A stretch of 64,000 nt of DNA from Escherichia coli (GCF_051903065.1 NZ_CP178438.1), one strand, 5' to 3'; positions 2,797-56,073 are shown, counted from the stretch's first letter. Notes: generated by a model from the letters alone, not told the origin. Translations and numbers: made by a program.

Positions 2797-4023
2797 CTAG
2801 TTACCTTCATTGATATAGTTAACACCTTTATCAATTGCCTCCAATATATAATCAATCATACCATACACACCCTCAGTAAATGGATGATTATTTAGGAAAG
2901 TAAACATGTTATTCCCTAAAGACACATTATACATTAAATACAAAAAAGGCACTAAATTTACTACATATAAACAAATAAGTAGGGCATATTTACTCCTACC
3001 TTTTCTCTCAAAAGCTTTTAGATAAGGTAAAATAAAGTAGGGATAAAAACCAAAAATAATCATACCCAATCTATTCGAAAGTGCTGGGAAAGGTAATAAT
3101 ATTAAGAATAGAAAACACTCCTTACAAAATAAAATCTTATTAAAATCATCACATTTACTTCTCTTCCCTATCATTATAATAAAGCATATATTTACGACTG
3201 TAATGATAATATAATTTAACGGCAAACGTGTGAATTTATCGTTCCCAGAAACTGAAGTGAATTTCGATAATAGCACAGAATAAATTGGCGTATTATAAAC
3301 CACAAAAAACACAACTAAAAGTCCAATAAGAATAGAAAAAACAATTTTTGCATATGAGTATTTTTTTGAACCAAAGATCATATAAACTGCATATATAAAA
3401 ACATTAACAACTGCAGACATGTGAAAAAAAACACTCAATAAAAAAAAGATATATTTTTTAAATGAACGCTCATTTATAGCATACAGAAAAACAACCACAG
3501 ATAAAACCTGTCGAAGAAAATATGATGTAACTTCTATAAATCCTAAGTTAAAAAAGAAAAGCGATAATAAAAAAAGTTTATATTTTTTTTCAACATCTTT
3601 AAGAATCTTGGATAAAAAAAAGACGATCAGAAAATAAGTAGAAAGTAAAAATACTTCATCATTGCCATCTGAAATATACCCAATAAATTTCATGATGGCT
3701 AAAAACATAAATTCCAGCCCATCACCAAATCTTGAATAGCCAAAAACATCAATTAAATTATAATTTAACTCATGGTAAACATGAAGATACTCTGCAATAT
3801 CTCCAAATGGTTTTAGTGTGGAAAAAAAAATAATAATAAACACCAATAGTGCATAAAAATAAAAATTACGCAATACTGGGTGTAACAATGGCGAGAGGGC
3901 ACCAATAAATATCAATACAACAAGAGGGTAAAAGAATGTTGCCAATAATAACAAAGGAATAAAATATACAACACAGTTATTATTTGACAATGAATTTTCA
4001 TTGCTGTTTTTATAAATATTCAT
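2797..4023 (-). CDS. wzy: O-antigen polymerase Wzy (polytopic membrane protein)
   Basis: 408-aa very hydrophobic, very AT-rich ORF between wzx and a glycosyltransferase; assignment by context and composition only. Confidence 0.55.
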   Translation of the reverse strand: MNIYKNSNENSLSNNNCVVYFIPLLLLATFFYPLVVLIFIGALSPLLHPVLRNFYFYALLVFIIIFFSTLKPFGDIAEYLHVYHELNYNLIDVFGYSRFGDGLEFMFLAIMKFIGYISDGNDEVFLLSTYFLIVFFLSKILKDVEKKYKLFLLSLFFFNLGFIEVTSYFLRQVLSVVVFLYAINERSFKKYIFFLLSVFFHMSAVVNVFIYAVYMIFGSKKYSYAKIVFSILIGLLVVFFVVYNTPIYSVLLSKFTSVSGNDKFTRLPLNYIIITVVNICFIIMIGKRSKCDDFNKILFCKECFLFLILLPFPALSNRLGMIIFGFYPYFILPYLKAFERKGRSKYALLICLYVVNLVPFLYLMYNVSLGNNMFTFLNNHPFTEGVYGMIDYILEAIDKGVNYINEGN

Positions 4024-4825
4024 ATCGGGAATATCCTTTTAGCAGAATAAATAATGCAGCTATTTTTTTAATTCTGCCGCATTTTTTTTTAAAAAGAAAT
4101 TTTTTCACCCAGAATATGAAGATATATAGTAACCCTAAATATCTACCACCACAGCGTACAAAAATAGCACTTCTATCAGATAGGGCATCTGTTTCATTAT
4201 AAATTTTTTTACCAGAACTTTCTATTGGATGCACAGTAATTGTGACAGGTATAAAAATAATATTATTTTTTGTTTTCATAAGATCCGTAACAAAAATCGG
4301 TTCTTCACCCGCTTTATATCTAGCCCCCAATCCGAAACACTCATCAAACCAAACATTACATTCCTGTATTTGATTCACATTAAGGCACATTTCTATTGAA
4401 GAAATGTTAAATGCTGACAATCTATTTAGCCTTTTCCTCATTAGCGGATATTTTTTCCTTAGTCTTCCGTCTTGCGTACAACTTTGAATTTGATAATGAT
4501 ACTTGCCTCTATCTTCGATTATTCTATCTTTTAGTTCATAAAGTCCATTAACAAGGTAAGCGACATCATCATCACTTATAATCATATAATCAACGCTTTT
4601 TTGAAATGCAGTAGCCAATAAAATGTTTCTGCTTTTACTTAACCCTTTACAGTATGTCGTTATTATTATTACATTGTTTTTCTTACAAATATCCCCATAT
4701 TGTTTTTGCTTATCAGTCACTTGATGTGAAATTATTATTAAAAATTCATCTGGTATATTTTTTATTTTTTCCCAAACCTGATTTATTCCATTATTTAATG
4801 TTGATATACCTATAGCTATTTTCAT
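4010..4825 (-). CDS. Glycosyltransferase, first gene of the O-antigen operon
   Basis: 271-aa ORF with DDD-containing GT-A-like N-terminal half; immediately downstream (in transcription sense) of the JUMPstart/ops element. Confidence 0.6.
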   Translation of the reverse strand: MKIAIGISTLNNGINQVWEKIKNIPDEFLIIISHQVTDKQKQYGDICKKNNVIIITTYCKGLSKSRNILLATAFQKSVDYMIISDDDVAYLVNGLYELKDRIIEDRGKYHYQIQSCTQDGRLRKKYPLMRKRLNRLSAFNISSIEMCLNVNQIQECNVWFDECFGLGARYKAGEEPIFVTDLMKTKNNIIFIPVTITVHPIESSGKKIYNETDALSDRSAIFVRCGGRYLGLLYIFIFWVKKFLFKKKCGRIKKIAALFILLKGYSRYEYL

Positions 4826-4858
4826 CTCGGTTATCTATTTTAGACCTATGAATATAAA

Positions 4859-4871
4859 TAACGCTACCGCC
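4859..4871 (-). promoter_or_regulatory. ops element (RfaH-dependent antitermination site) within JUMPstart upstream of the O-antigen operon
   Basis: Plus strand reads acgctaccgcc, the reverse complement of GGCGGTAGCGT, followed by cctggcttt-agctacc JUMPstart-like sequence; lies in the 5-prime leader of the minus-strand operon. Confidence 0.7.
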
Positions 4872-5156
4872 CCTGGCTTTACAGCTACCAGAGCACTGCA
4901 TGCATGTCTACGATGTGACGAGCGTTACCCACTCGCGCTTAACTCGAAAAATTCAAACGCTAATTGTCTTACCAATCCGCTCTGGAAACAAGGAAAATCC
5001 TGGAAAACTTTGACTAAAATCCTATTGCTAACTCGTTGTTATTCTGATTGTTTATATAAAACAACGGCAGGAATATTCGCAACAAATTACTTTCGCCACG
5101 AATCCTCACTGCCGTTATAATTTTCTTATCAACCGTTACATCCGGTCAGATTTTCA

Positions 5157-6050
5157 TTATTCGCTTAACAGCTTCTCAATCCCTTTACGGAACTTCGCCC
5201 CTTCTTTCAGGTTGCGCAGTCCATACTTCACAAACGCCTGCATATAGCCCATTTTTTTACCGCAGTCGTAGCTTTCACCAGTCATCAGCATTGCATCAAC
5301 GGACTGTTTTTTCGCCAGTTCAGCAATGGCATCAGTCAGCTGAATACGCCCCCATGCACCAGGTTGAGTGCGTTCAAGTTCCGGCCAAATATCGGCAGAA
5401 AGCACATAGCGACCAACGGCCATGATGTCTGAGTCCAGCGTTTGTGGCTGATCCGGTTTTTCGATGAATTCAACAATGCGGCTGACTTTGCCTTCACGGT
5501 CCAGCGGTTCTTTGGTCTGAATGACGGAGTATTCAGAGAGGTCACCCGGCATACGTTTTGCCAGCACCTGGCTACGGCCCGTTTCATTGAAGCGCGCAAT
5601 CATGGCAGCAAGGTTGTAGCGCAGCGGGTCGGCGCTGGCGTCGTCGATCACTACGTCTGGCAGTACCACGACAAATGGGTTGTCGCCAATGGCGGGTCGT
5701 GCACATAAAATGGAGTGGCCTAAACCTAAAGGTTCGCCCTGACGCACGTTCATAATGGTCACGCCAGGCGGACAGATAGACTGCACTTCCGCCAGCAGTT
5801 GACGCTTCACGCGCTGTTCAAGGAGAGATTCTAATTCATAAGAGGTGTCGAAGTGGTTTTCGACCGCGTTCTTGGACGCGTGAGTTACCAGGAGGATTTC
5901 TTTGATCCCTGCAGCCACAATCTCGTCAACAATGTACTGAATCATTGGCTTGTCGACGATCGGTAGCATCTCTTTGGGTATCGCCTTAGTGGCTGGCAAC
6001 ATATGCATCCCAAGACCCGCTACCGGTATAACTGCTTTTAAATTCGTCAT
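5157..6050 (-). CDS. galF: UTP-glucose-1-phosphate uridylyltransferase paralog GalF
   Basis: 297-aa ORF with the GalU/GalF N-terminal motif ([39 protein letters not shown]); position between the O-antigen and colanic-acid clusters. Confidence 0.92.
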
Positions 6051-43634: not shown

Positions 43635-45584
43635 TCAGCAGCGGCTTAAATCTGCCTGCGCCTGAGCCAGTTTTTCTGCCGCCTGACGTAACGGTTCCAT
43701 CAACGGCATGGTCCGTGCTGGAGCATGAAGGCGGAATCGCTGCAACTCTGTCGCGCCGACAGTCAACGCCGATTCCAGCCGATGTCGTTTGGCGGCCATT
43801 TTCGCCATTACCGCTTGTCTTTCTGCAGGCGTTACCGCTTCGTTCGGCCTGAACACAAAACGGCGTTCACAGCTCGCTTTCCAGTCGATGACCGCCTGGG
43901 TCAGATGATCACCAAACCCTTTAACTTGCTTAACCCCACGACGGGTAACATCCGCGGCTGTTTCAATACCAAAAGACCGTAACGCCGCTTTACGCGCAGG
44001 GCCAACGCCGGGAATAGAGGCAGCATCAATAAAAAATCCCTCCAGAAACTTCTGCTTCTGCCGTTCCCTTGCAGTGTCGTGAAGTGCTGCCAGAGCACGT
44101 TTTTCTTCTTCCGGTAACCCGAGAATTTCGTCCTTCATTTTTTCGAGCATCGTCCGTTTGGCGATAAAACCTTCCAGCCCGCCCAACTGTTGGATCTGGT
44201 TGACTAAATGGTCATAGTCCATTTTCGCGCGATTAAATGCCTCACGGCGTTGCTGGATTTCTGCTTTATAAGCTTTGCTTGTCAGACTGCCAATAATCCA
44301 GATAGCCGCCAGCACAGGAACCAAAATAATATAACGCGGTTCTGCCTGAAGGCCGCAAAGCAACAGCGATAACGCTGACAGTGCGATCTCAATCAGAATG
44401 ATGTATTCGCGCCGTAACAGGCCTAAAGGAAGCGGCCTGCCAGTCGGTTGGAAATGATCGGGTAATGGCAATTGCAATGCTGGCGGTGCTACTGACGCCA
44501 TCACCATCGCCCAGACTTTCGCCAGCACAAAATCACCGCCGGTGGTAATGACCTCTTCACCGAGATCAATAAAATAGATAACGCCTTGATTATCCAGCGT
44601 ACACCACGGGCAGTCAGTCAAATGAGCGGGGTAAACATGCATTGCTGAAACGGTACATTTCTTTAACTGTTGGCGTAGAGAGTCCAGTGCCGCTACCCAC
44701 GCTTTAGCCGTCGGACGCCCCGTTGCCACGCCACTTTCCGTGAATGCCTGCTGAAACATGGCTTCAACATCGCCCGGTAACATCGACAGCGGAATAGATC
44801 GTGGCGGCGGTTTTAAACCACGCCGCTGATTATCTGACGCGTAGGCATAACGGAAATGGGCAATATCCGTCTCCAGCGCATTACCCGCATCAGAGATAAG
44901 CGGCACACCAGAATAAGGATGCCGCCCACCAAACAAGACGTGAAAAATCAGCAACGCAAGGCCAAAATTATCGTGATTTTCTGTGCGTTCAAAACCGACA
45001 AATGATGGCAAGGTTTGTAGCTCTGGCGGCGTAAAATGCGACACGCCAACTTCGCATAAATGCAACGTTCCATTGGCGTTAATCTGAAAGGAGTCGCTGT
45101 CGATCAACACCACTTTGCTGTCGCGACCTACCATAAAGCTGTTCTGGTTTACGTCACCCACGACGTGCCCGTGCTCGTGAACCGTAGCAAAAGATGAAGC
45201 AATATTACGCGCAACATAGAGTAGAAAATCCCACGCACAATGAGGGTAACTCTGGCGACGATGTGCCGGGCTATAGATCATATGAATCGGTTCTTTACCA
45301 GAAACTTTTGGCATCATAAAACCGATAACTTTTCCGCCTCGTCCACCGTGAAGCGTTGCCTGCGGCCAGGCGACATAATTCAGCAACTGTGCATCAGCTG
45401 TCGCAGCCATAAAGGCAAGTTTGTCCTGTTTTAAGGCGGGTGGCGGCGTGTGATAAATCTTAGCGACGCTATCGACAAACTCCTCGATATCATAAACCGC
45501 GCCTTCGCCACCTTTGCCCAGTTCACGGCCTGGCGTAACGCACTCACCAGTAGCAGTATATAAAGTGGGTTTCATGGTAACCAC
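43635..45584 (-). CDS. yegI: Atypical Ser/Thr protein kinase YegI (kinase-like N-terminus, TM segment, C-terminal helix-hairpin-helix region)
   Basis: 649-aa ORF; lysine-containing kinase-like N-terminal motifs; membrane segment; overlaps the downstream phosphatase gene start. Confidence 0.85.
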   Translation of the reverse strand: MVTMKPTLYTATGECVTPGRELGKGGEGAVYDIEEFVDSVAKIYHTPPPALKQDKLAFMAATADAQLLNYVAWPQATLHGGRGGKVIGFMMPKVSGKEPIHMIYSPAHRRQSYPHCAWDFLLYVARNIASSFATVHEHGHVVGDVNQNSFMVGRDSKVVLIDSDSFQINANGTLHLCEVGVSHFTPPELQTLPSFVGFERTENHDNFGLALLIFHVLFGGRHPYSGVPLISDAGNALETDIAHFRYAYASDNQRRGLKPPPRSIPLSMLPGDVEAMFQQAFTESGVATGRPTAKAWVAALDSLRQQLKKCTVSAMHVYPAHLTDCPWCTLDNQGVIYFIDLGEEVITTGGDFVLAKVWAMVMASVAPPALQLPLPDHFQPTGRPLPLGLLRREYIILIEIALSALSLLLCGLQAEPRYIILVPVLAAIWIIGSLTSKAYKAEIQQRREAFNRAKMDYDHLVNQIQQLGGLEGFIAKRTMLEKMKDEILGLPEEEKRALAALHDTARERQKQKFLEGFFIDAASIPGVGPARKAALRSFGIETAADVTRRGVKQVKGFGDHLTQAVIDWKASCERRFVFRPNEAVTPAERQAVMAKMAAKRHRLESALTVGATELQRFRLHAPARTMPLMEPLRQAAEKLAQAQADLSRC

Positions 45585-47315: not shown

Positions 47316-47499
47316 TTTCAGCATCCCGCTGAAATCGTCGGCTTACCTCCTTTCGCCATGCATGCAGTCTATCGCTGACTTGCGGATAAAATAGTTTCCA
47401 GTGTGATTATTGCGTAACGTCTCGCAAAGAATATTTGCTGGCAGGATCGCAGACTGCAAAGCCTGCAGATTGACAATCTGACCGTGAAGGCATACTTTC

Positions 47500-47620
47500 A
47501 GGAGTGAGGGTTGAGCGGGGTTTCCCCCGCCCTGGTAGTCTTAGTAAGCTGGCCAGCTAATGACTAAGAGCACCACGATGATGAGTAGCTTCATCATGAC
47601 CCTTTTCTTATTAAAGGATG
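47500..47620 (+). ncRNA. sibB: SibB antisense sRNA, apparently lacking its native 3-prime hairpin
   Basis: ttgaca / catact promoter-like elements at about 47471-47497; homology with the sibA copy stops near 47618. Confidence 0.45.
47541..47597 (-). CDS. ibsB: Type I toxin IbsB-like (18 aa hydrophobic peptide)
   Basis: Minus-strand translation gives MMKLLIIVVLLVISWPAY; paralogous to ibsA. Confidence 0.75.
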   Translation of the reverse strand: MMKLLIIVVLLVISWPAY

Positions 47621-47763
47621 ACAAAATAATACAAATCACTTAAAAATCATCGCATTACACGAATTTGCGGTTAAATAATAGACTACAAAGTGCGACAAAA
47701 CGCAACATATGCAGTCACTATGAATCAACTACTTAGATAGTACTAGTGACCTGTAACAGAGCA

Positions 47764-47805
47764 TTAGCGCAAGGTGATTTTTTGTCCTCTTGCGCTAATT
47801 TTTTG
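47764..47805 (+). terminator. Rho-independent terminator-like hairpin
   Basis: Perfect 10-bp stem ttagcgcaag / cttgcgctaa with a 15-nt loop, followed by tttttt. Confidence 0.35.
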
Positions 47806-47961
47806 TCATCAAACATGTCGTTCTCCAGAGAAGCATAAAGCCTTGCAATCAAGTGCAAAGCTTTGTGTACCAGAGTTTTTCCTCATCAACTACCACAAGT
47901 ATCGATCGATTGAGACTTGGATGATAGACTTCATGCCTTTCAGAACTCATTGATTACATAA

Positions 47962-48324
47962 ATGTTAAAGCTATTTGCAAAGTACACCTCGATTGGTGTG
48001 CTGAACACACTTATACACTGGGTGGTTTTTGGTGTATGTATCTATGCCGCGCATACCAATCAGGCTCTGGCAAACTTCTCAGGTTTCGTTGTGGCTGTGA
48101 GCTTTAGCTTCTTCGCGAATGCAAAATTCACATTCAAAGCATCGACTACAACGATGCGCTACATGTTATATGTCGGGTTCATGGGAACACTGAGTGCTAC
48201 TGTTGGATGGGCTGCTGATAAGTGCTCGCTTCCTCCAATTATCACTCTTATCACCTTCTCCGCCATCAGCCTGGTGTGCGGTTTCGTCTATTCAAAGTTC
48301 ATTGTCTTTAGGGATGCGAAATGA
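47962..48324 (+). CDS. gtrA: Bactoprenol-linked glucose translocase GtrA
   Basis: 120-aa small 4-TM protein of the GtrA family; start codon of the next gene overlaps its stop. Confidence 0.85.
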
Positions 48325-49241
48325 AAATATCTCTGATTGTTCCTGTCTTCAATGAAGAAGATGCGATACCAATTTTCTATAAAACGGTACGTGAATTCGA
48401 AGAGTTGAAGCCTTATGACGTCGAAATTGTATTCATAAATGACGGAAGCAAAGACGCCACGGAATCAATTATTAACGTTCTGGCTGTTTCAGATCCGCTA
48501 GTTGTTCCGCTGTCATTTACACGAAACTTTGGTAAAGAACCAGCATTGTTTGCAGGGTTAGACCATGCAACGGGCGATGCTGTTATTCCTATTGATGTTG
48601 ACCTGCAAGACCCGATTGAGGTTATTCCTCATCTGATTGAAAAGTGGCAGGCAGGTGCCGATATGGTGCTGGCAAAACGTTCAGATCGTTCAACTGATGG
48701 AAGATTAAAACGGAAAACCGCTGAGTGGTTCTATAAGCTTCACAATAAAATAAGCAATCCAAAGATTGAAGAGAATGTCGGCGATTTCCGCCTGATGTCT
48801 CGAGAGGTGGTAGAAAATATCAAACTACTGCCAGAGCGTAACCTGTTTATGAAAGGCGTTTTATCTTGGGTTGGCGGTAAGACGGATGTTGTTGAATACA
48901 TCCGTGCTGAACGCGTTGCCGGAAGCACAAAATTCAATGGCTGGAAGCTATGGAACCTGGCGCTTGAGGGAATTACAAGTTTCTCGACCTTCCCCTTACG
49001 CGTGTGGACTTACATCGGCCTACTTGTTGCGGGACTCTCGTTCCTTTACGGGGTGTGGATGATTTTCGACACATTGGTGTTCGGTAATGCTGTCCGCGGA
49101 TATCCTTCTATTCTTGTATCTATTCTCTTTTTAGGTGGCATTCAGTTAATTGGTATTGGGGTGCTGGGAGAATACATCGGCAGAATTTACGTAGAAGTTA
49201 AAAATCGTCCTAGATATGTACTTAAAAAAATAAAAGGTTAG
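48321..49241 (+). CDS. gtrB: Bactoprenol glucosyltransferase GtrB (GT2)
   Basis: 306-aa ORF with GT2 N-terminus ([11 protein letters not shown]...FINDGSKD) and two C-terminal TM segments. Confidence 0.9.
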
Positions 49242-49246
49242 AGAAT

Positions 49247-50623
49247 ATGCGCATTTCAAAAAATGAAAAATACCTTTCATTGATTATGATAGCATTTTAC
49301 TTGCCATTTTTATTATCTGATTTACCTTTTAGGGACGATCTAAGCAGGACTTATTGGGGTTTTGTTGGGTTGTCTCAATTAGGTAGACCATTGGCAGACA
49401 TTGTTTATAGTTTGGTTGGATTTGGCTATGAGGGTGTTAACCTCAGCCCTATGCCTAAAATTATAGCGCTATTAATAATATTATCGTCTGCGATATTTTC
49501 ATACAGAACGCTATTCAACTCAATAGGAGCAACCGGGTTACTCTCTTTATCTATTTTCTTTGCAAATCCATTTATTATTCAAAATTTTGCATATCAGTAC
49601 GACTGTTTTCCAATGGCTTTATCTATTTTATTGGCGACATTATCTGTATTATATAGACCAAGATCAAGCTATTTTTATTTTCTTAGCGCATCATTTTTAT
49701 TAACTAGCGCAATATCACTTTATCAAGCATCTATATTTATTGCGGCATCTTTATATTTATGTAAGATCACTATTTATTTCGTTAACGATAGAAATCGCAG
49801 AGATGTTTTTATAGAATGCATGCTTACTCTTTTGTCTTCTTTTTTCTCTATTGCATGTTACATGGTGATTTTACTTTTTGTAGAAAATGGCGTGTCAAAA
49901 CGAGCTAGCATTACAGGGCCAAGTGGCGTTATTAGCAATATCGAGTTCCTTTTGGATAGGTTAAATAGCCTTTACCACTCGGTTTATATTTTTTTTATTA
50001 TTTTGTCATTAGTATTAATATTCTCTCTCTTGAGGATTTTTATCCTAAAAAGATATATCAATTTATGCGTGATATTACTAATACTTGTTGCGCTGCTAGT
50101 CTCTTCCCTACTCCCATCTGTCATCCTTAAGGAAGGGTTCGCCGGACCAAGAGTTTTAATGTCTATTTGTTCGGTATTTATATTTATATCTATCATTGCA
50201 ACCGGAAAAGAAAAATACGTATACGCCATGGTGTTATCTGTTTTAATGATGCATTCCATGTCTATTTCATACGCATTTTCAGGTGACATTAAGGCACAAT
50301 ACGATAGATACTCGATGATATCATCTCTTGTTTATAAAGATATTGATAATTACGTGTCGTCAAATACAGCAAAAATATACATTTCTTGCAAATCAACCCC
50401 ATCACAAAGAGAGTACGTTTTCTATAAATTCAACAATCACATAGCATGGCTCAACCCAGAAGAGGCTTGGGCTATCAGGTTTTTCATAAGAAATAATGGC
50501 GAGAGCAGGGTGGTGCACTCATGGGATGAATGCTTTGATATAAATGGAGGTAAGATCGTTAAAGAAAATGCATTTTATAAAATGGTTGAAAATAAAAATT
50601 CTTACTATTTCATAATGAAATAA
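49247..50623 (+). CDS. Serotype-specific O-antigen glucosyltransferase (GtrC-type polytopic membrane protein)
   Basis: 458-aa very AT-rich, highly hydrophobic ORF immediately after gtrAB; family call is by context and composition. Confidence 0.6.
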   Translation: MRISKNEKYLSLIMIAFYLPFLLSDLPFRDDLSRTYWGFVGLSQLGRPLADIVYSLVGFGYEGVNLSPMPKIIALLIILSSAIFSYRTLFNSIGATGLLSLSIFFANPFIIQNFAYQYDCFPMALSILLATLSVLYRPRSSYFYFLSASFLLTSAISLYQASIFIAASLYLCKITIYFVNDRNRRDVFIECMLTLLSSFFSIACYMVILLFVENGVSKRASITGPSGVISNIEFLLDRLNSLYHSVYIFFIILSLVLIFSLLRIFILKRYINLCVILLILVALLVSSLLPSVILKEGFAGPRVLMSICSVFIFISIIATGKEKYVYAMVLSVLMMHSMSISYAFSGDIKAQYDRYSMISSLVYKDIDNYVSSNTAKIYISCKSTPSQREYVFYKFNNHIAWLNPEEAWAIRFFIRNNGESRVVHSWDECFDINGGKIVKENAFYKMVENKNSYYFIMK

Positions 50624-50629
50624 ATATAG

Positions 50630-50663
50630 GCGGGGGGGGGGGTAACAATCCCCCGTCTTTTTT
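50630..50663 (+). terminator. Rho-independent terminator after the gtr operon
   Basis: G-run (11 G) pairing with ccccc across a taacaat loop, followed by tctttttt, 7 bp after the gtrC stop. Confidence 0.5.
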
Positions 50664-50849
50664 GCTACGGCAAGTGATTAATCGCAACAATTGATTATTA
50701 TTTATAACAAATGCGTCATCTACCGCTATTCGGGTGACATTTTCATTCCTTATCTAAAATACAATTAAATAATTAACAAATAATTAAACGAATTGCATGA
50801 AAAATACATTACCGAAAAGTTAGAATAGTGTGCGATTGAAAGTTAATAA

Positions 50850-53381
50850 CTATATAACGGATAGCGTTCTTATGTCATTGCTAGCTGGTGATGCCATAAC
50901 TATCTGTGTTACGTTAGCGCCAGACACCGTATACGTCAGAATTACGTTACCAACGGCTCCTATATTAAAGTTTTGTTTAGCTCCTGAGGTACCTATAGCT
51001 CTGGCATTCGTTAAAGTATACGTGCTTCCCGCAGTGAATCCTGTAGCAATTACAAATTGTTGACCAACTTTAAAAGGAACTGTCATTGTTGCGGATGTTG
51101 ACTCGACAGTAGCAAACGGCAGGCCAGGCTGTTTAACCCCCGTCACATCCCAGAACTCACAGTTACGCACCAATGCTCGACCAATTAAATCGCGAGTTAC
51201 AGGGAATGTTGTCTGGTCCTGTGATAAGAATGCTCCAACAATTTGCACGTTATCGAGCGTAATATCGTGTACTGTGGCCCCATCTATAGGACTTAACGTT
51301 GGTGATGCACTCCATAATTTACCACCCTTCATTTTGATACTTACAGGCCCGTTAGGGTCTGTCCCTCTAAAAGCGCGAATACTCTCAAATTTGCAATCTG
51401 TAAATTCATAGCTGCCGCGTTGGTTAGTTTCGAACAATGTATACGCCTCACCTGACACTCCGTGTCTTACATCACTGGCAACAACGCGCGGATTATGGCG
51501 GAATGATGCAGACGTGACAGAGAAAAATGGCGCGCAGACATCGTTAATAAGAATGTCTGTTGTATAACGCCCTGTAACAGCGCTCTCAGAGTCACTCATA
51601 TCCGAATATAGCGCTTTGAAGCGGGAGAAGTCTATGTTTAGACCTATTCCTGCACTTTTTGGTAATTGTCCAAAATCAAGCCCGTCAATAACAATTTTCT
51701 TAGGGAAATAAAGGGTGTTATCTCGAGCTACAGTTATTAATGTACCCGGATAAGTCAAGACGAAACCTGGATACATTTTAACATCTTTCAAGGTAACATT
51801 ATTGAATAACGTGGGGCTTATAGGCGACCCGCTACTAGGCCCTTGCCCAGCAGTAACAGCTGCGTTTATGATACCATTTCCGGGTGCGCCGCTGCGCAGG
51901 CCAGTTAACTTAATATTCTCCATGTATAAATCACCATCGAAGCCCCCCCCCAGCGTCAGAGCGAGTCGAAATAATATTACCAGGCTTATATGGTGAAGCA
52001 TTAAATATTGAATTGGTTACATACAAATCCCCGATACCAGAAGCGACGACACCATAAGTCCCAATATTACAGTCATTTATCTTTAAGTAGTTTTGGAAAG
52101 GTCTGTGGAAATCAATTCGACTAAGATCGCATCTTTCAAACCTTATATTGGCGCAATTATTGCTGCCTGTTGCCCCCCAGCCTTTACCATTTGCCGTTGC
52201 GTTTTTGATAGTGACATCCATAGAGTTAGATAGGGTTAAGGCGTATGCGTAGCTATCAACACCATCTATTAAGGCGTTTGCTATGGCTGGCGTGTATAAA
52301 CCATCAACTGTAACATCATAGCTTTCGTTAATTTCTATCCTGATATCATTAAAGTTTTGCGTTATCGGTCTGTTAATAAATGTCGTATTAACCAAGCGAA
52401 CTCGTGATGCTTGATTAATATAAATAATTCGATAATTCTTTGTAAGACTTTCGTCTATAGTCAATCCCTTAAGGTCTGCACATCTTTGCGTATTTTAAGT
52501 GCTTTAATTGATGTTGCGTTAGTTCCTAGGGCGTACTTAAGCGGGTTTTCAATGTATCCACGGTTATATACCCTGTTGAAATCTACGCGAGTTTGATTAA
52601 CGCCATCGAAAATAAACATAGGTTGAGATGTCGATAACTGAATGAAGCAACCGTCAAGGTCGGTATTAGAAGCCAAACCATCAAGATAGTTGCTACCTAT
52701 GTCGCGAGAGCCACTGGTGGACGTATTAACTCCATTAACTGGAGCCGAACCAGAACCGTATGTAACAGGGGCGACAGGCTGGCTAATAACAATTTGCCCT
52801 TTCCATGTAGCCGATGGTTTAAGCACACACCCGGTTAAATCCACATTTAAACTTTTAATATCAAGATAAGTATCACCATCTAGTAGAAAAGTTCCGTCAG
52901 ATTGCCTAACGTCTAAATTATTTGAATAAGCATAGTTCAGTGCCTTAGCTATGGCGGGAGCGTCATTTGTTACTCCATCACCAATAGCGCCAAACTCCTT
53001 CAACGTTACCCAGTATTTTACTTTCTCCAAGCTCTTTTGATATTGATCTGGGTCGTACTTCAGCACATTAGGAAAATAGAACTGCTGCGCACCATATGCA
53101 TCATAAACAGCCATAGAGTGGCCTTGCACAGTTACGAACTTGGCAATCTGTCCGTTATATACCGGATATCCAGCAGCGTTAATGATGATTGGTTGTGAAA
53201 CAGGAACGTGAGAACCATCCTCATTCTCCACATAAATCTGAATCTGGTTTTCAGGATTTACCGGGTCAGTGTCAATTTTTCCTATATAAATTTTGCCATT
53301 GGCAACCGCTTTAAAAGAACGTGCCATAGTGAAGAGTTGCGAAGGCATGCTTACCACAACATTTGCGGTGATATCTGTCAT
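50850..53381 (-). pseudogene. P22-like phage tailspike gene disrupted by at least two frameshifts
   Basis: Three consecutive minus-strand ORFs (52461-53381, 51931-52464, 50850-52001). The first begins [43 protein letters not shown], recognised from memory as the P22 gp9 head-binding domain; the others are beta-helix-like. One frame junction sits on a 9-nt homopolymer. Confidence 0.75.
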
Positions 53382-53505
53382 TTAATTTGCTCCAGATTCA
53401 AGGAATCGCCGCAGCATGGCTACGGTGAATTTTGTGCATAAAAAACCCAGCCGAAGCTGGGTCGTTGCGTTGGTTATCTGTAAGTAGTTATGTGCTTAGG
53501 TAATT

Positions 53506-54706
53506 TGTATTAGCTCAGACCTGATCTGACAGTTACCGGTTATTTATACAGGTATCTGTCAGATTACATCCGGCTTAAATTTTTCTCGGCCCAGATGCGC
53601 TTTCCATCAAGTAACGTTTCCATTGGCGTCCGCCCATTGCGCATTTTTCCCTGATGGGTTCGTTCATTATTATAGTGAGCCAGCCACTCATCAAGATCCG
53701 ATTGCAATGTATCGAGAGCTCCATACAACTTTTTACGGAACGTCACCTGATAAAATTCGTTCAGTATCGTCTTATGGAACCGCTCGCAGATGCCATTTGT
53801 CTGCGGTGACATCGCTTTAGTTTTCGTGTGGTCTATATCATTTATTGCCAGATATAGCTGGTAGTCATGCTGTTCCACCTTACCGCAGTACTCTGTTCCT
53901 CTGTCGGTCAGTATTCTCAGCATTGGCAGGTTTTGCGATTCGTAAAATGGCAACACACGATCATTCAGCAGGTCAGCAGCCGTGATCGGTGTTTTGGTTA
54001 CATACAGTTTACAGTGTGCGACCTTCGAGTAGGTGTCAACGAACGTTTGCTGATAAATGCGTCCGACTCCTTTCAGATTACCCACGTAGAACGTATCCTG
54101 AGAGCCCAGATAACCGGGATGTGCGGTTTCGATTTCACCACACGCTTCGTCATCGCTGGCTTTACGCTCCAGAACGACTATCTGTGCTTCTGTCAGCTCG
54201 ATACCGTCACGGGCTACTTTTTCCTCCAGTGCTTTCAGCCGCTTTTTGAAGTTCTCAAGGTTATGCCGCAGCCAGACAGAACGTACACCCCTTCCTGAGA
54301 TGAAGACACCTTGCTTACGTAGCTCATTGCTGGTCCGGTGCTGGCCATGCGCAGGGTACGCGATGGCATAATCAACAACGGCCCGCTCAGTTGCATCATC
54401 GGTACGATTTTTTAGATTGGGCGTTCGTCGAGTGCGGTTAATCAGTGCATCCACCCCACCTTCATCAGCCAGTTCGCGATAACGGTAAAACGTATCACGC
54501 GAGACGCCCATGATTTTGCAGGCCTTCGAAACATTGCGGAGTTCTTCAGCCAGATTGAGCAAACCGGCTTTGTGTTTGATGACGGGATTGTTAGTATGAA
54601 GCATGAGAGTTACCTCGTGTTTTGTATAAGGATTCGACACCCATATCAAAACCGGTAACTCTCAACCTTTCAAGGCTCAGTGTCAGATCAAGTCGCGACT
54701 AATACA
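53506..54706 (-). mobile_element. IS481-like insertion sequence (about 1.2 kb) with imperfect terminal inverted repeats
   Basis: Ends tgtattagctcagacctgatctgacagttaccggtt (53506-53541) and aaccggtaact...gtcagatcaagtcgcgactaataca (54650-54706) are inverted repeats with a 20-bp insertion in the right copy; encloses one transposase gene. Confidence 0.6.
53564..54604 (-). CDS. DDE transposase (integrase-core/rve domain with N-terminal HTH), IS481-family-like
   Basis: Track ORF is 361 aa from a TTG; likely ATG start at 54604 (MLHTNNPVIKHK..., 346 aa); HTH-like N-terminus and integrase-core-like central region. Confidence 0.75.
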   Translation of the reverse strand: MLHTNNPVIKHKAGLLNLAEELRNVSKACKIMGVSRDTFYRYRELADEGGVDALINRTRRTPNLKNRTDDATERAVVDYAIAYPAHGQHRTSNELRKQGVFISGRGVRSVWLRHNLENFKKRLKALEEKVARDGIELTEAQIVVLERKASDDEACGEIETAHPGYLGSQDTFYVGNLKGVGRIYQQTFVDTYSKVAHCKLYVTKTPITAADLLNDRVLPFYESQNLPMLRILTDRGTEYCGKVEQHDYQLYLAINDIDHTKTKAMSPQTNGICERFHKTILNEFYQVTFRKKLYGALDTLQSDLDEWLAHYNNERTHQGKMRNGRTPMETLLDGKRIWAEKNLSRM

Positions 54707-54754
54707 TGTACCCGTCATTCAGACGATTCCCGACAGTGTTTCATAATTCCTCCA

Positions 54755-54772
54755 TTTTTCTCCCTTATTGGC
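54755..54772 (+). promoter_or_regulatory. BaeR-binding box of the mdtA promoter
   Basis: tttttctcccttattggc matches the published BaeR box consensus TTTTTCTCCATDATTGGC at 16 of 18 positions, about 55 bp upstream of the mdtA start. Confidence 0.5.
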
Positions 54773-54825
54773 TGGCTACACTAGTATCATTCCGCGAAAC
54801 GTTTCAGGAAGAGAAACTCTTAACG

Positions 54826-56073
54826 ATGAAAGGCAGTTATAAATCCCGTTGGGTAATCGTAATCGTGGTGGTTATCGCCGCCATCGCCGCATTCTGGTTC
54901 TGGCAAGGCCGCAATGACTCCCAGAGTGCAGCCCCAGGGGCGACGAAACAAGCGCAGCAATCGCCAGCGGGTGGTCGCCGTGGTATGCGTTCCGGCCCAT
55001 TAGCCCCGGTTCAGGCGGCGACCGCCGTAGAACAGGCAGTTCCGCGTTACCTTACCGGGCTTGGCACCATTACCGCTGCTAACACCGTTACGGTGCGCAG
55101 CCGCGTAGATGGTCAGTTGATGGCGTTACATTTCCAGGAAGGCCAGCAGGTCAAAGCAGGCGATTTACTGGCAGAAATTGACCCCAGCCAGTTCAAAGTT
55201 GCATTAGCACAAGCCCAGGGCCAACTGGCAAAAGATAAAGCCACGCTTGCCAACGCCCGCCGTGACCTGGCGCGTTATCAACAACTGGTAAAAACCAATC
55301 TCGTATCTCGTCAGGAACTGGATGCCCAACAGGCGCTGGTCAGTGAAACCGAAGGCACCATTAAGGCTGATGAAGCAAGCGTCGCCAGCGCGCAGCTGCA
55401 ACTCGACTGGAGCCGCATCACCGCACCAGTCGATGGTCGCGTTGGTCTCAAGCAGGTTGATGTTGGTAACCAAATCTCCAGTGGTGATACCACCGGGATT
55501 GTGGTGATCACCCAGACGCATCCTATCGATTTGCTCTTTACCCTGCCGGAAAGCGATATCGCTACCGTCGTGCAGGCGCAGAAATCCGGAAAACCGCTGG
55601 TGGTAGAAGCCTGGGATCGCACCAACTCGAAGAAATTAAGTGAAGGCACGCTGTTAAGCCTCGATAACCAAATCGATGCCACAACCGGTACGATTAAAGT
55701 GAAAGCACGCTTTAATAATCAGGATGATGCGCTGTTTCCCAATCAGTTTGTTAACGCGCGCATGTTAGTCGACACCGAACAAAACGCCGTAGTGATCCCA
55801 ACAGCCGCCCTGCAAATGGGCAATGAAGGCCATTTTGTCTGGGTGCTGAATAGCGAAAACAAGGTCAGCAAACATCTGGTGACGCCGGGCATTCAGGACA
55901 GTCAGAAAGTGGTGATCCGCGCAGGTATTTCTGCGGGCGATCGCGTGGTGACAGACGGCATTGATCGCCTGACCGAAGGGGCGAAAGTGGAAGTGGTGGA
56001 AGCCCAGAGCGCCACCACTCCGGAAGAGAAAGCCACCAGCCGCGAATACGCGAAAAAAGGAGCTCGCTCCTGA
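54826..56073 (+). CDS. mdtA: Multidrug efflux RND membrane-fusion protein MdtA
   Basis: Track ORF is 455 aa and starts at an ATG formed at the IS terminus (54706); conserved start is [15 protein letters not shown]... (415 aa). Confidence 0.92.

Follow-up and report, generated by a model that had tools for sequence, protein, structure and literature searches.

An insertion sequence (IS) of the IS481 family stands between the remnant of a prophage and the promoter region of the mdtABCD-baeSR efflux operon in the stretch of Escherichia coli DNA analysed here (64,000 nucleotides of NZ_CP178438.1, assembly GCF_051903065.1; hereafter, the window). Its repeats, its transposase and its flanks define it as a 1201-bp element at 53506-54706 on the minus strand, a novel joint without a target-site duplication. 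We consider it highly probable that this IS is a deletion joint at which the rest of the prophage, its attL site and 143 bp of chromosome were lost, that the event had little or no effect on mdtA, and that the joint is inherited vertically in one lineage.

The limits of the IS are set by a pair of terminal inverted repeats. The repeat at the 3' end of the transposase gene, TGTATTAGCTCAGACCTGATCTGACA, occupies 53506-53531, and the repeat at the 5' end of that gene, ...GTCGCGACTAATACA, occupies 54681-54706, where the comparison with K-12 places its limit as well. As a pair (TGTATTAGCTCAGACCTGATCTGACA and TGTCAGATCAAGTCGCGACTAATACA), the repeats are 26 nt each, start with TGT and are imperfect, being 81% complementary. 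The sole ambiguous base is the A at 54706, which is common to the IS terminus and the native sequence. A single minus-strand open reading frame (ORF) fills the element, from an ATG at 54604 down to 53564, and reads away from mdtA. By its ORF, by HMM matches and by its RefSeq counterpart (WP_114007566.1), it is an intact transposase gene of 346 aa with an HTH and a DDE/rve core. The protein scores 279.2 bits against the NCBIfam model NF033577 (‘IS481 family transposase’, cutoff 224), matching model positions 2-283 of 284, and it contains the Pfam domains HTH_29 (residues 11-73), rve (162-267) and rve_3 (256-319), the DDE core being assigned at the level of the rve and rve_3 domains rather than residue by residue. 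Identical copies of the IS are labelled ‘IS481 family transposase’ in RefSeq. The model score, the domains and the RefSeq copies all agree with the first-pass annotation, which had called the element IS481-like: it is an ordinary IS481-family IS, already annotated in public records.

Like the prototype of the family, IS481 of Bordetella pertussis, the element combines a single DDE (rve) transposase bearing an N-terminal HTH with a length of about 1.2 kb, terminal inverted repeats that start with TGT, and a short duplication at ordinary insertions. The copy at 53506-54706 differs only in that it sits at a deletion joint and the flanking duplication is absent. Its DNA is 87-88% identical to the commoner full-length IS481-family copies of E. 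coli, and 81% identical to an enterobacterial relative on the phage-plasmid RCS47, annotated as ‘ISSod13 family’. Searching the literature for IS481-family elements named in E. coli gave no name for the element at 53506-54706. We also rejected a phage-borne origin for the IS: no phage record carries it, and the sole full-length match is the 81% relative in RCS47. Some match to the IS occurs in 3402 of the 5426 complete E. coli genomes, most of the best matches being only 80-90% identical, and just 76 of them have a match that spans 80% or more of the IS. This distribution suggests that related or relic IS481-family sequences are widespread in the species.

The IS is flanked on the left by ...gcttaggtaatt and on the right by tgtacccgtc..., with no 7-bp repeat; the two flanks have one base (t) in common and nothing longer. 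In order to read this absence, we sampled copies of the same IS group, namely the window copy and seven others, and read the ends in each. The IS ends are the same in all eight independent copies. Exact 7-bp duplications bound three sister copies: AGTCAGT, around a copy on a plasmid of EC7072022BGR; CATTAAA, around a copy at yhcG/nanQ; and CCTTAAT. The remaining five of the eight, the window copy included, have no duplication. Since the sister copies make a 7-bp duplication, its absence at 53506-54706 is real; and since this is what the IS type makes, copies without a duplication mark rearrangements. The flanks were re-read and held no overlooked repeat, in keeping with the original observation that no direct repeat flanks the element.

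What lies to the left of the IS can be followed back to the point at which the phage entered the chromosome. The sibB gene, which specifies a SIB_RNA antitoxin sRNA antisense to ibsB, is found at 47470-47612 on the plus strand (Rfam RF00113, 133 bits, full model 1-147). The prophage att core is formed by the final bases of the gene, CTTATT, and the comparison with K-12 shows the native chromosome ending at 47612. The junction between chromosome and phage falls on CCTTATT (47606-47612), which is the exact 3' end of the Rfam SIB_RNA model, and the same sibB/phage junction is common to 90 complete E. coli genomes. Where a prophage has integrated at sibB, only about 15 bp of native sequence are left upstream of the ibsB start codon, and the ibsB promoter is probably displaced in such genomes.

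From 47613 to 53505, the ORFs and the RefSeq annotation of the ECNB21-M121 locus identify what is left of the attR end of a P22-like prophage of the serotype-converting kind. The annotation of that locus, which is identical, supplies three plus-strand genes, namely gtrA (47962-48324), gtrB (48321-49241) and a gtrC-like gene (49247-50623); gtrA and gtrB are 84-86% identical to their counterparts in the Sf phages SfII, SfIV, SfI and SfV. On the minus strand there follow a disrupted tailspike gene, now in three ORFs (50850-53381; PHROG tailspike matches, E=6e-110), and a phage terminator (53444-53463) found by a terminator scan. These three minus-strand ORFs measure 306, 177 and 383 aa, versus two ORFs of 306 and 537 aa in ECNB21-M121; the window therefore carries one extra 1-bp frameshift. 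In the tailspike remnant, a 1-bp indel separates the two sequences, which match exactly around the IS. The arrangement, with the gtr cluster next to attR and then the tailspike gene, is that of P22-like genomes and of the gtrABC-carrying P22-like and Sf-type prophages. The window remnant differs from those prophages in that only 5.9 kb are left and the tailspike gene is split in three, and in its att site, which is not a tRNA gene but the sibB 3' end.

The window retains the junction on the attR side, at CCTTATT; the attL side and int are missing, and the IS joint stands in their place. What an attL side can look like at this locus is seen in RM14723, in which an int-bearing, partly degraded lambdoid prophage occupies the CCTTATT core (L003 1040-1060 and 39700-39720). 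There, int adjoins mdtA, and 143 bp are kept between attL and mdtA. The RM14723 prophage also carries nleB2, nleC and nleD.

The two flanks of the IS come from different sources. In the intact P22-like phages of 23CRST047 and BL12, the left flank runs on into gp16, the gene for a DNA-ejection protein, whose stop codon lies about 8 bp past the end of the flank. The right flank belongs to the chromosome and begins 143 bp beyond the att core: K-12 (DH10B, L001) corresponds to the window from L001:4000 and window position 54706 onward, at 97.7% identity; the alignment on the sibB side ends at L001:3856, which is window position 47612; and the 143 bp at L001:3857-3999 are missing from the window. 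Since the phage and mdtA-side flanks were never contiguous, there is no target duplication at the window copy. With phage DNA on one side and chromosome 143 bp past att on the other, these comparisons support the proposal, made in the first-pass annotation, of an IS-linked deletion of the rest of the prophage.

In the order of events that we propose, a P22-like gtr-carrying prophage would once have been integrated in the att site that the sibB 3' end provides, oriented with its integrase end towards mdtA. The IS481-family element would now be the deletion joint, linking phage DNA from between gp16 and the tailspike gene to chromosomal DNA 120 bp upstream of the mdtA start codon. Three things would have been removed: the part of the prophage that runs from gp16 to int, the attL site, and 143 bp of the chromosomal DNA that separated sibB from mdtA; given the usual size of such phages, the phage portion may have amounted to roughly 30-35 kb. 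No IS-free close relative was found among the 5426 complete E. coli genomes, and hence our account of the ancestral state, of the sequence of events and of the length deleted draws on lysogens that are more distantly related. In comparison with other IS-bounded deletions that leave prophage remnants behind, the joint is alike in having one IS, no duplication and non-contiguous flanks, and in the loss of the lytic and integration genes. As in those cases, too, another gtr-carrying remnant in the same genome ends at a second copy of the IS, by a truncated int at ybhC. We saw nothing unusual at the joint, which is typical of IS-bounded deletions.

The 143 bp and the promoter region are contiguous in 5409 of the 5426 complete E. 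coli genomes. The IS joint occurs in only six RefSeq genomes (ECNB21-M121, 23CRST027, 23CRST031, 33F4, 32F4 and 33E), and it is identical in all of them. The six carriers are 100% identical to each other in mdtAB, the next nearest genome being 98.9% identical, and they are the only genomes that reach at least 99% identity in mdtAB. The complete identity of mdtAB in the six carriers points to a joint that would have arisen in one event and been inherited vertically within one E. coli lineage. As a separate feature of the window, yegJ, which lies between yegI and pphC in K-12 (L001 1039-1823), is absent at about 45530-45581; for the same locus, RefSeq shows yegI and pphC directly adjoining or overlapping.

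The lineage also contains a second copy of the IS, 100% identical, at the ybhC locus, which is the lambda attB (L004 3001-4201, 23CRST027). It is present in ECNB21-M121 and 23CRST031 as well, and absent from the lineage's three calf/farm genomes. On one side of this copy is a prophage remnant with gtr genes, on the other an integrase gene truncated at its N-terminal end, and there is no target duplication; because it is missing from three genomes of the lineage, it represents a later event with the same geometry. Outside the lineage, the chromosome of EC7072022BGR, in which 8-10 places match the IS, carries a 99.6% identical copy (L005 1501-2701) that joins a truncated paaZ to pdxI, again without a duplication. 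The paaZ-pdxI joint implies a putative IS-bounded deletion of the paa cluster and the ydbA region.

Several explanations of the joint have to be weighed against one another. The simplest, that the IS inserted in an ordinary manner and that its target duplication was overlooked or has since mutated, we hold to be practically excluded. All that speaks for it is the single t shared by both flanks, and against it stand not only the missing 7-bp repeat but the different origins of the flanks, one being phage intergenic DNA and the other the chromosomal DNA upstream of mdtA, which lie tens of kb apart in lysogens. The alignments of the flanks with K-12, with RM14723 and with the intact phages refute it. 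A deletion, on the other hand, could have come about by either of two routes: an adjacent deletion, in which an IS at one site would have transposed within the same DNA molecule, or recombination between two IS copies in the same orientation. The latter would have taken the form of homologous recombination between directly oriented copies in the gp16/tailspike intergenic region and 120 bp upstream of mdtA; the survivor would be a hybrid copy with one flank from each parent, and the account differs from the best explanation in mechanism only. We regard this route as possible, and assign it the smaller share of our confidence. At least two copies, 100% identical, are present in the window's lineage, and the five of eight sampled copies without a duplication include the paaZ...pdxI deletion, in a strain with 8-10 matches to the IS. 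However, neither of the parental single insertions was found in the 5426 genomes, and by inspection there is no reciprocal 7-mer match, in either orientation, between the flanks of the lineage's two copies. We lean slightly towards direct IS-mediated adjacent deletion. An inversion or translocation between the lineage's two copies was considered separately and set aside, as inspection of their flanks gave no such signature.

The joint leaves the immediate surroundings of mdtA in place. The native mdtA upstream region (54707-54825, plus strand; -119 to -1 from the ATG) has 2 SNPs relative to K-12 by pairwise comparison. Within it, the BaeR box TTTTTCTCCCTTATTGGC (54755-54772, plus strand) is identical in K-12 and matches 17 of the 18 positions of the published consensus TTTTTCTCCATDATTGGC, as quoted in PMC3915751. 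The end of the IS at 54706 lies 49 bp from the BaeR box and 120 bp from the mdtA ATG at 54826; the sequence confirms these positions and distances as they were first given. The predicted -10 element is likely the native TAGTAT at 54782-54787. A native sigma-70-like site, TTCAGA-18-CATAAT, with 9 of 12 matches, is also found just upstream of the BaeR box (54718-54747, plus strand); it is kept in K-12 (L001 4012-4041) and is unrelated to the IS. By its ORFs and by RefSeq annotation, mdtA itself (54826-56073, plus strand) is the first gene of an intact mdtABCD-baeSR operon: the six genes stand in the order mdtA-B-C-D-baeS-baeR, all intact, with no pseudogene flags in the RefSeq annotation of the identical locus.

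The first-pass annotation had further held that the end of the IS creates an ATG, and with it a 40-codon in-frame extension of mdtA in the ORF track, which it took to be probably an artefact. Both the ATG and the extension proved to be native. The ATG at 54706-54708, which overlaps the last base of the IS, is present in K-12 at L001:4000-4002, and the mechanically called mdtA ORF measures 464 aa in K-12 (from a GTG, 3973..5367) versus 455 aa in the window. Since K-12 has the same ATG and a longer in-frame ORF, the extension is a property of the native leader; if anything, the IS would appear to shorten the mechanical ORF.

We also asked what the IS might contribute to transcription of the operon. 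A tool scan and a relaxed scan both covered the end of the IS and the joint itself, and neither turned up a sigma-70 promoter, outward or hybrid, directed at mdtA. On the plus strand, relaxing the thresholds still gave no -35/-10 pair within 54560-54706 or across the joint, although consensus scans of this kind are weak evidence against outward transcription. The only plus-strand match of the promoter scan upstream of mdtA is the native TTCAGA-18-CATAAT site described above. Given the native BaeR box, likely -10 element and 5' UTR, together with a divergent transposase and no outward promoter detected, mdtABCD-baeSR most likely remains under BaeR control, its expression changed little or not at all. 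The suggestion that the IS alters mdtA expression finds no support in these results: the sequence from -120 to the ATG is native, the transposase is divergent, and no outward promoter was seen.

The insertion of an IS upstream of an efflux operon is nonetheless a known route to overexpression, and IS-activated efflux operons are those in which the IS has entered upstream of an RND pump operon or within a repressor gene. The window resembles such cases in that an IS lies immediately upstream of the promoter of an RND efflux operon. It differs from them in that no outward or hybrid promoter is found, the IS is divergent, the BaeR activator box is kept, and no repressor gene or known operator is disrupted. 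We think it unlikely, all told, that the IS alters expression of mdtABCD-baeSR, and thereby efflux or Bae signalling, whether through an outward or hybrid promoter or through the loss of upstream regulatory DNA. What favours such an effect is that 143 bp of near-universally conserved upstream DNA are gone; the candidates for a lost element are CpxR sites and the terminator-like hairpin found after sibB where the IS is absent. The mdtABCD promoter is reported to have CpxR sites (PMC5063474), and, should these be situated further than 120 bp from the mdtA ATG on its upstream side, they are lost and regulation could differ. There is a precedent in Bordetella, where IS481 is reported to affect the expression of a neighbouring gene (PMC3053399). 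Against these considerations, no match to GTAAA-N5-GTAAA with at most 2 mismatches was found in the lost 143 bp of K-12, the promoter end of the transposase gene faces away from mdtA, no plus-strand -35/-10 pair was detected, and the BaeR box and all sequence downstream of it are native.

A broader reading would hold that the lost 143 bp, the neighbouring IS, or both, rewire mdtABCD-baeSR, or else that the IS repeatedly ‘domesticates’ gtr prophages. This joint reading seems to us distinctly improbable. Rewiring could come about, for one, if the auto-regulated Bae operon had lost inputs that act from upstream, such as CpxR. Domestication is a possibility in the sense that the IS would delete the span from tailspike to int and spare the O-antigen-modifying genes, a pattern seen at two loci of the same genome.

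If the lost DNA bore modulatory sites, the lineage would be a natural promoter-truncation mutant of a Bae-controlled efflux operon; nothing that we found suggests that it is one. The joint matters little beyond strain-level annotation, where the mechanically ‘extended’ mdtA ORF can be taken as native rather than as a product of the IS. What the joint does offer is a view of an IS that would have cut back a serotype-converting prophage until little but the gtr genes and the tailspike was left.
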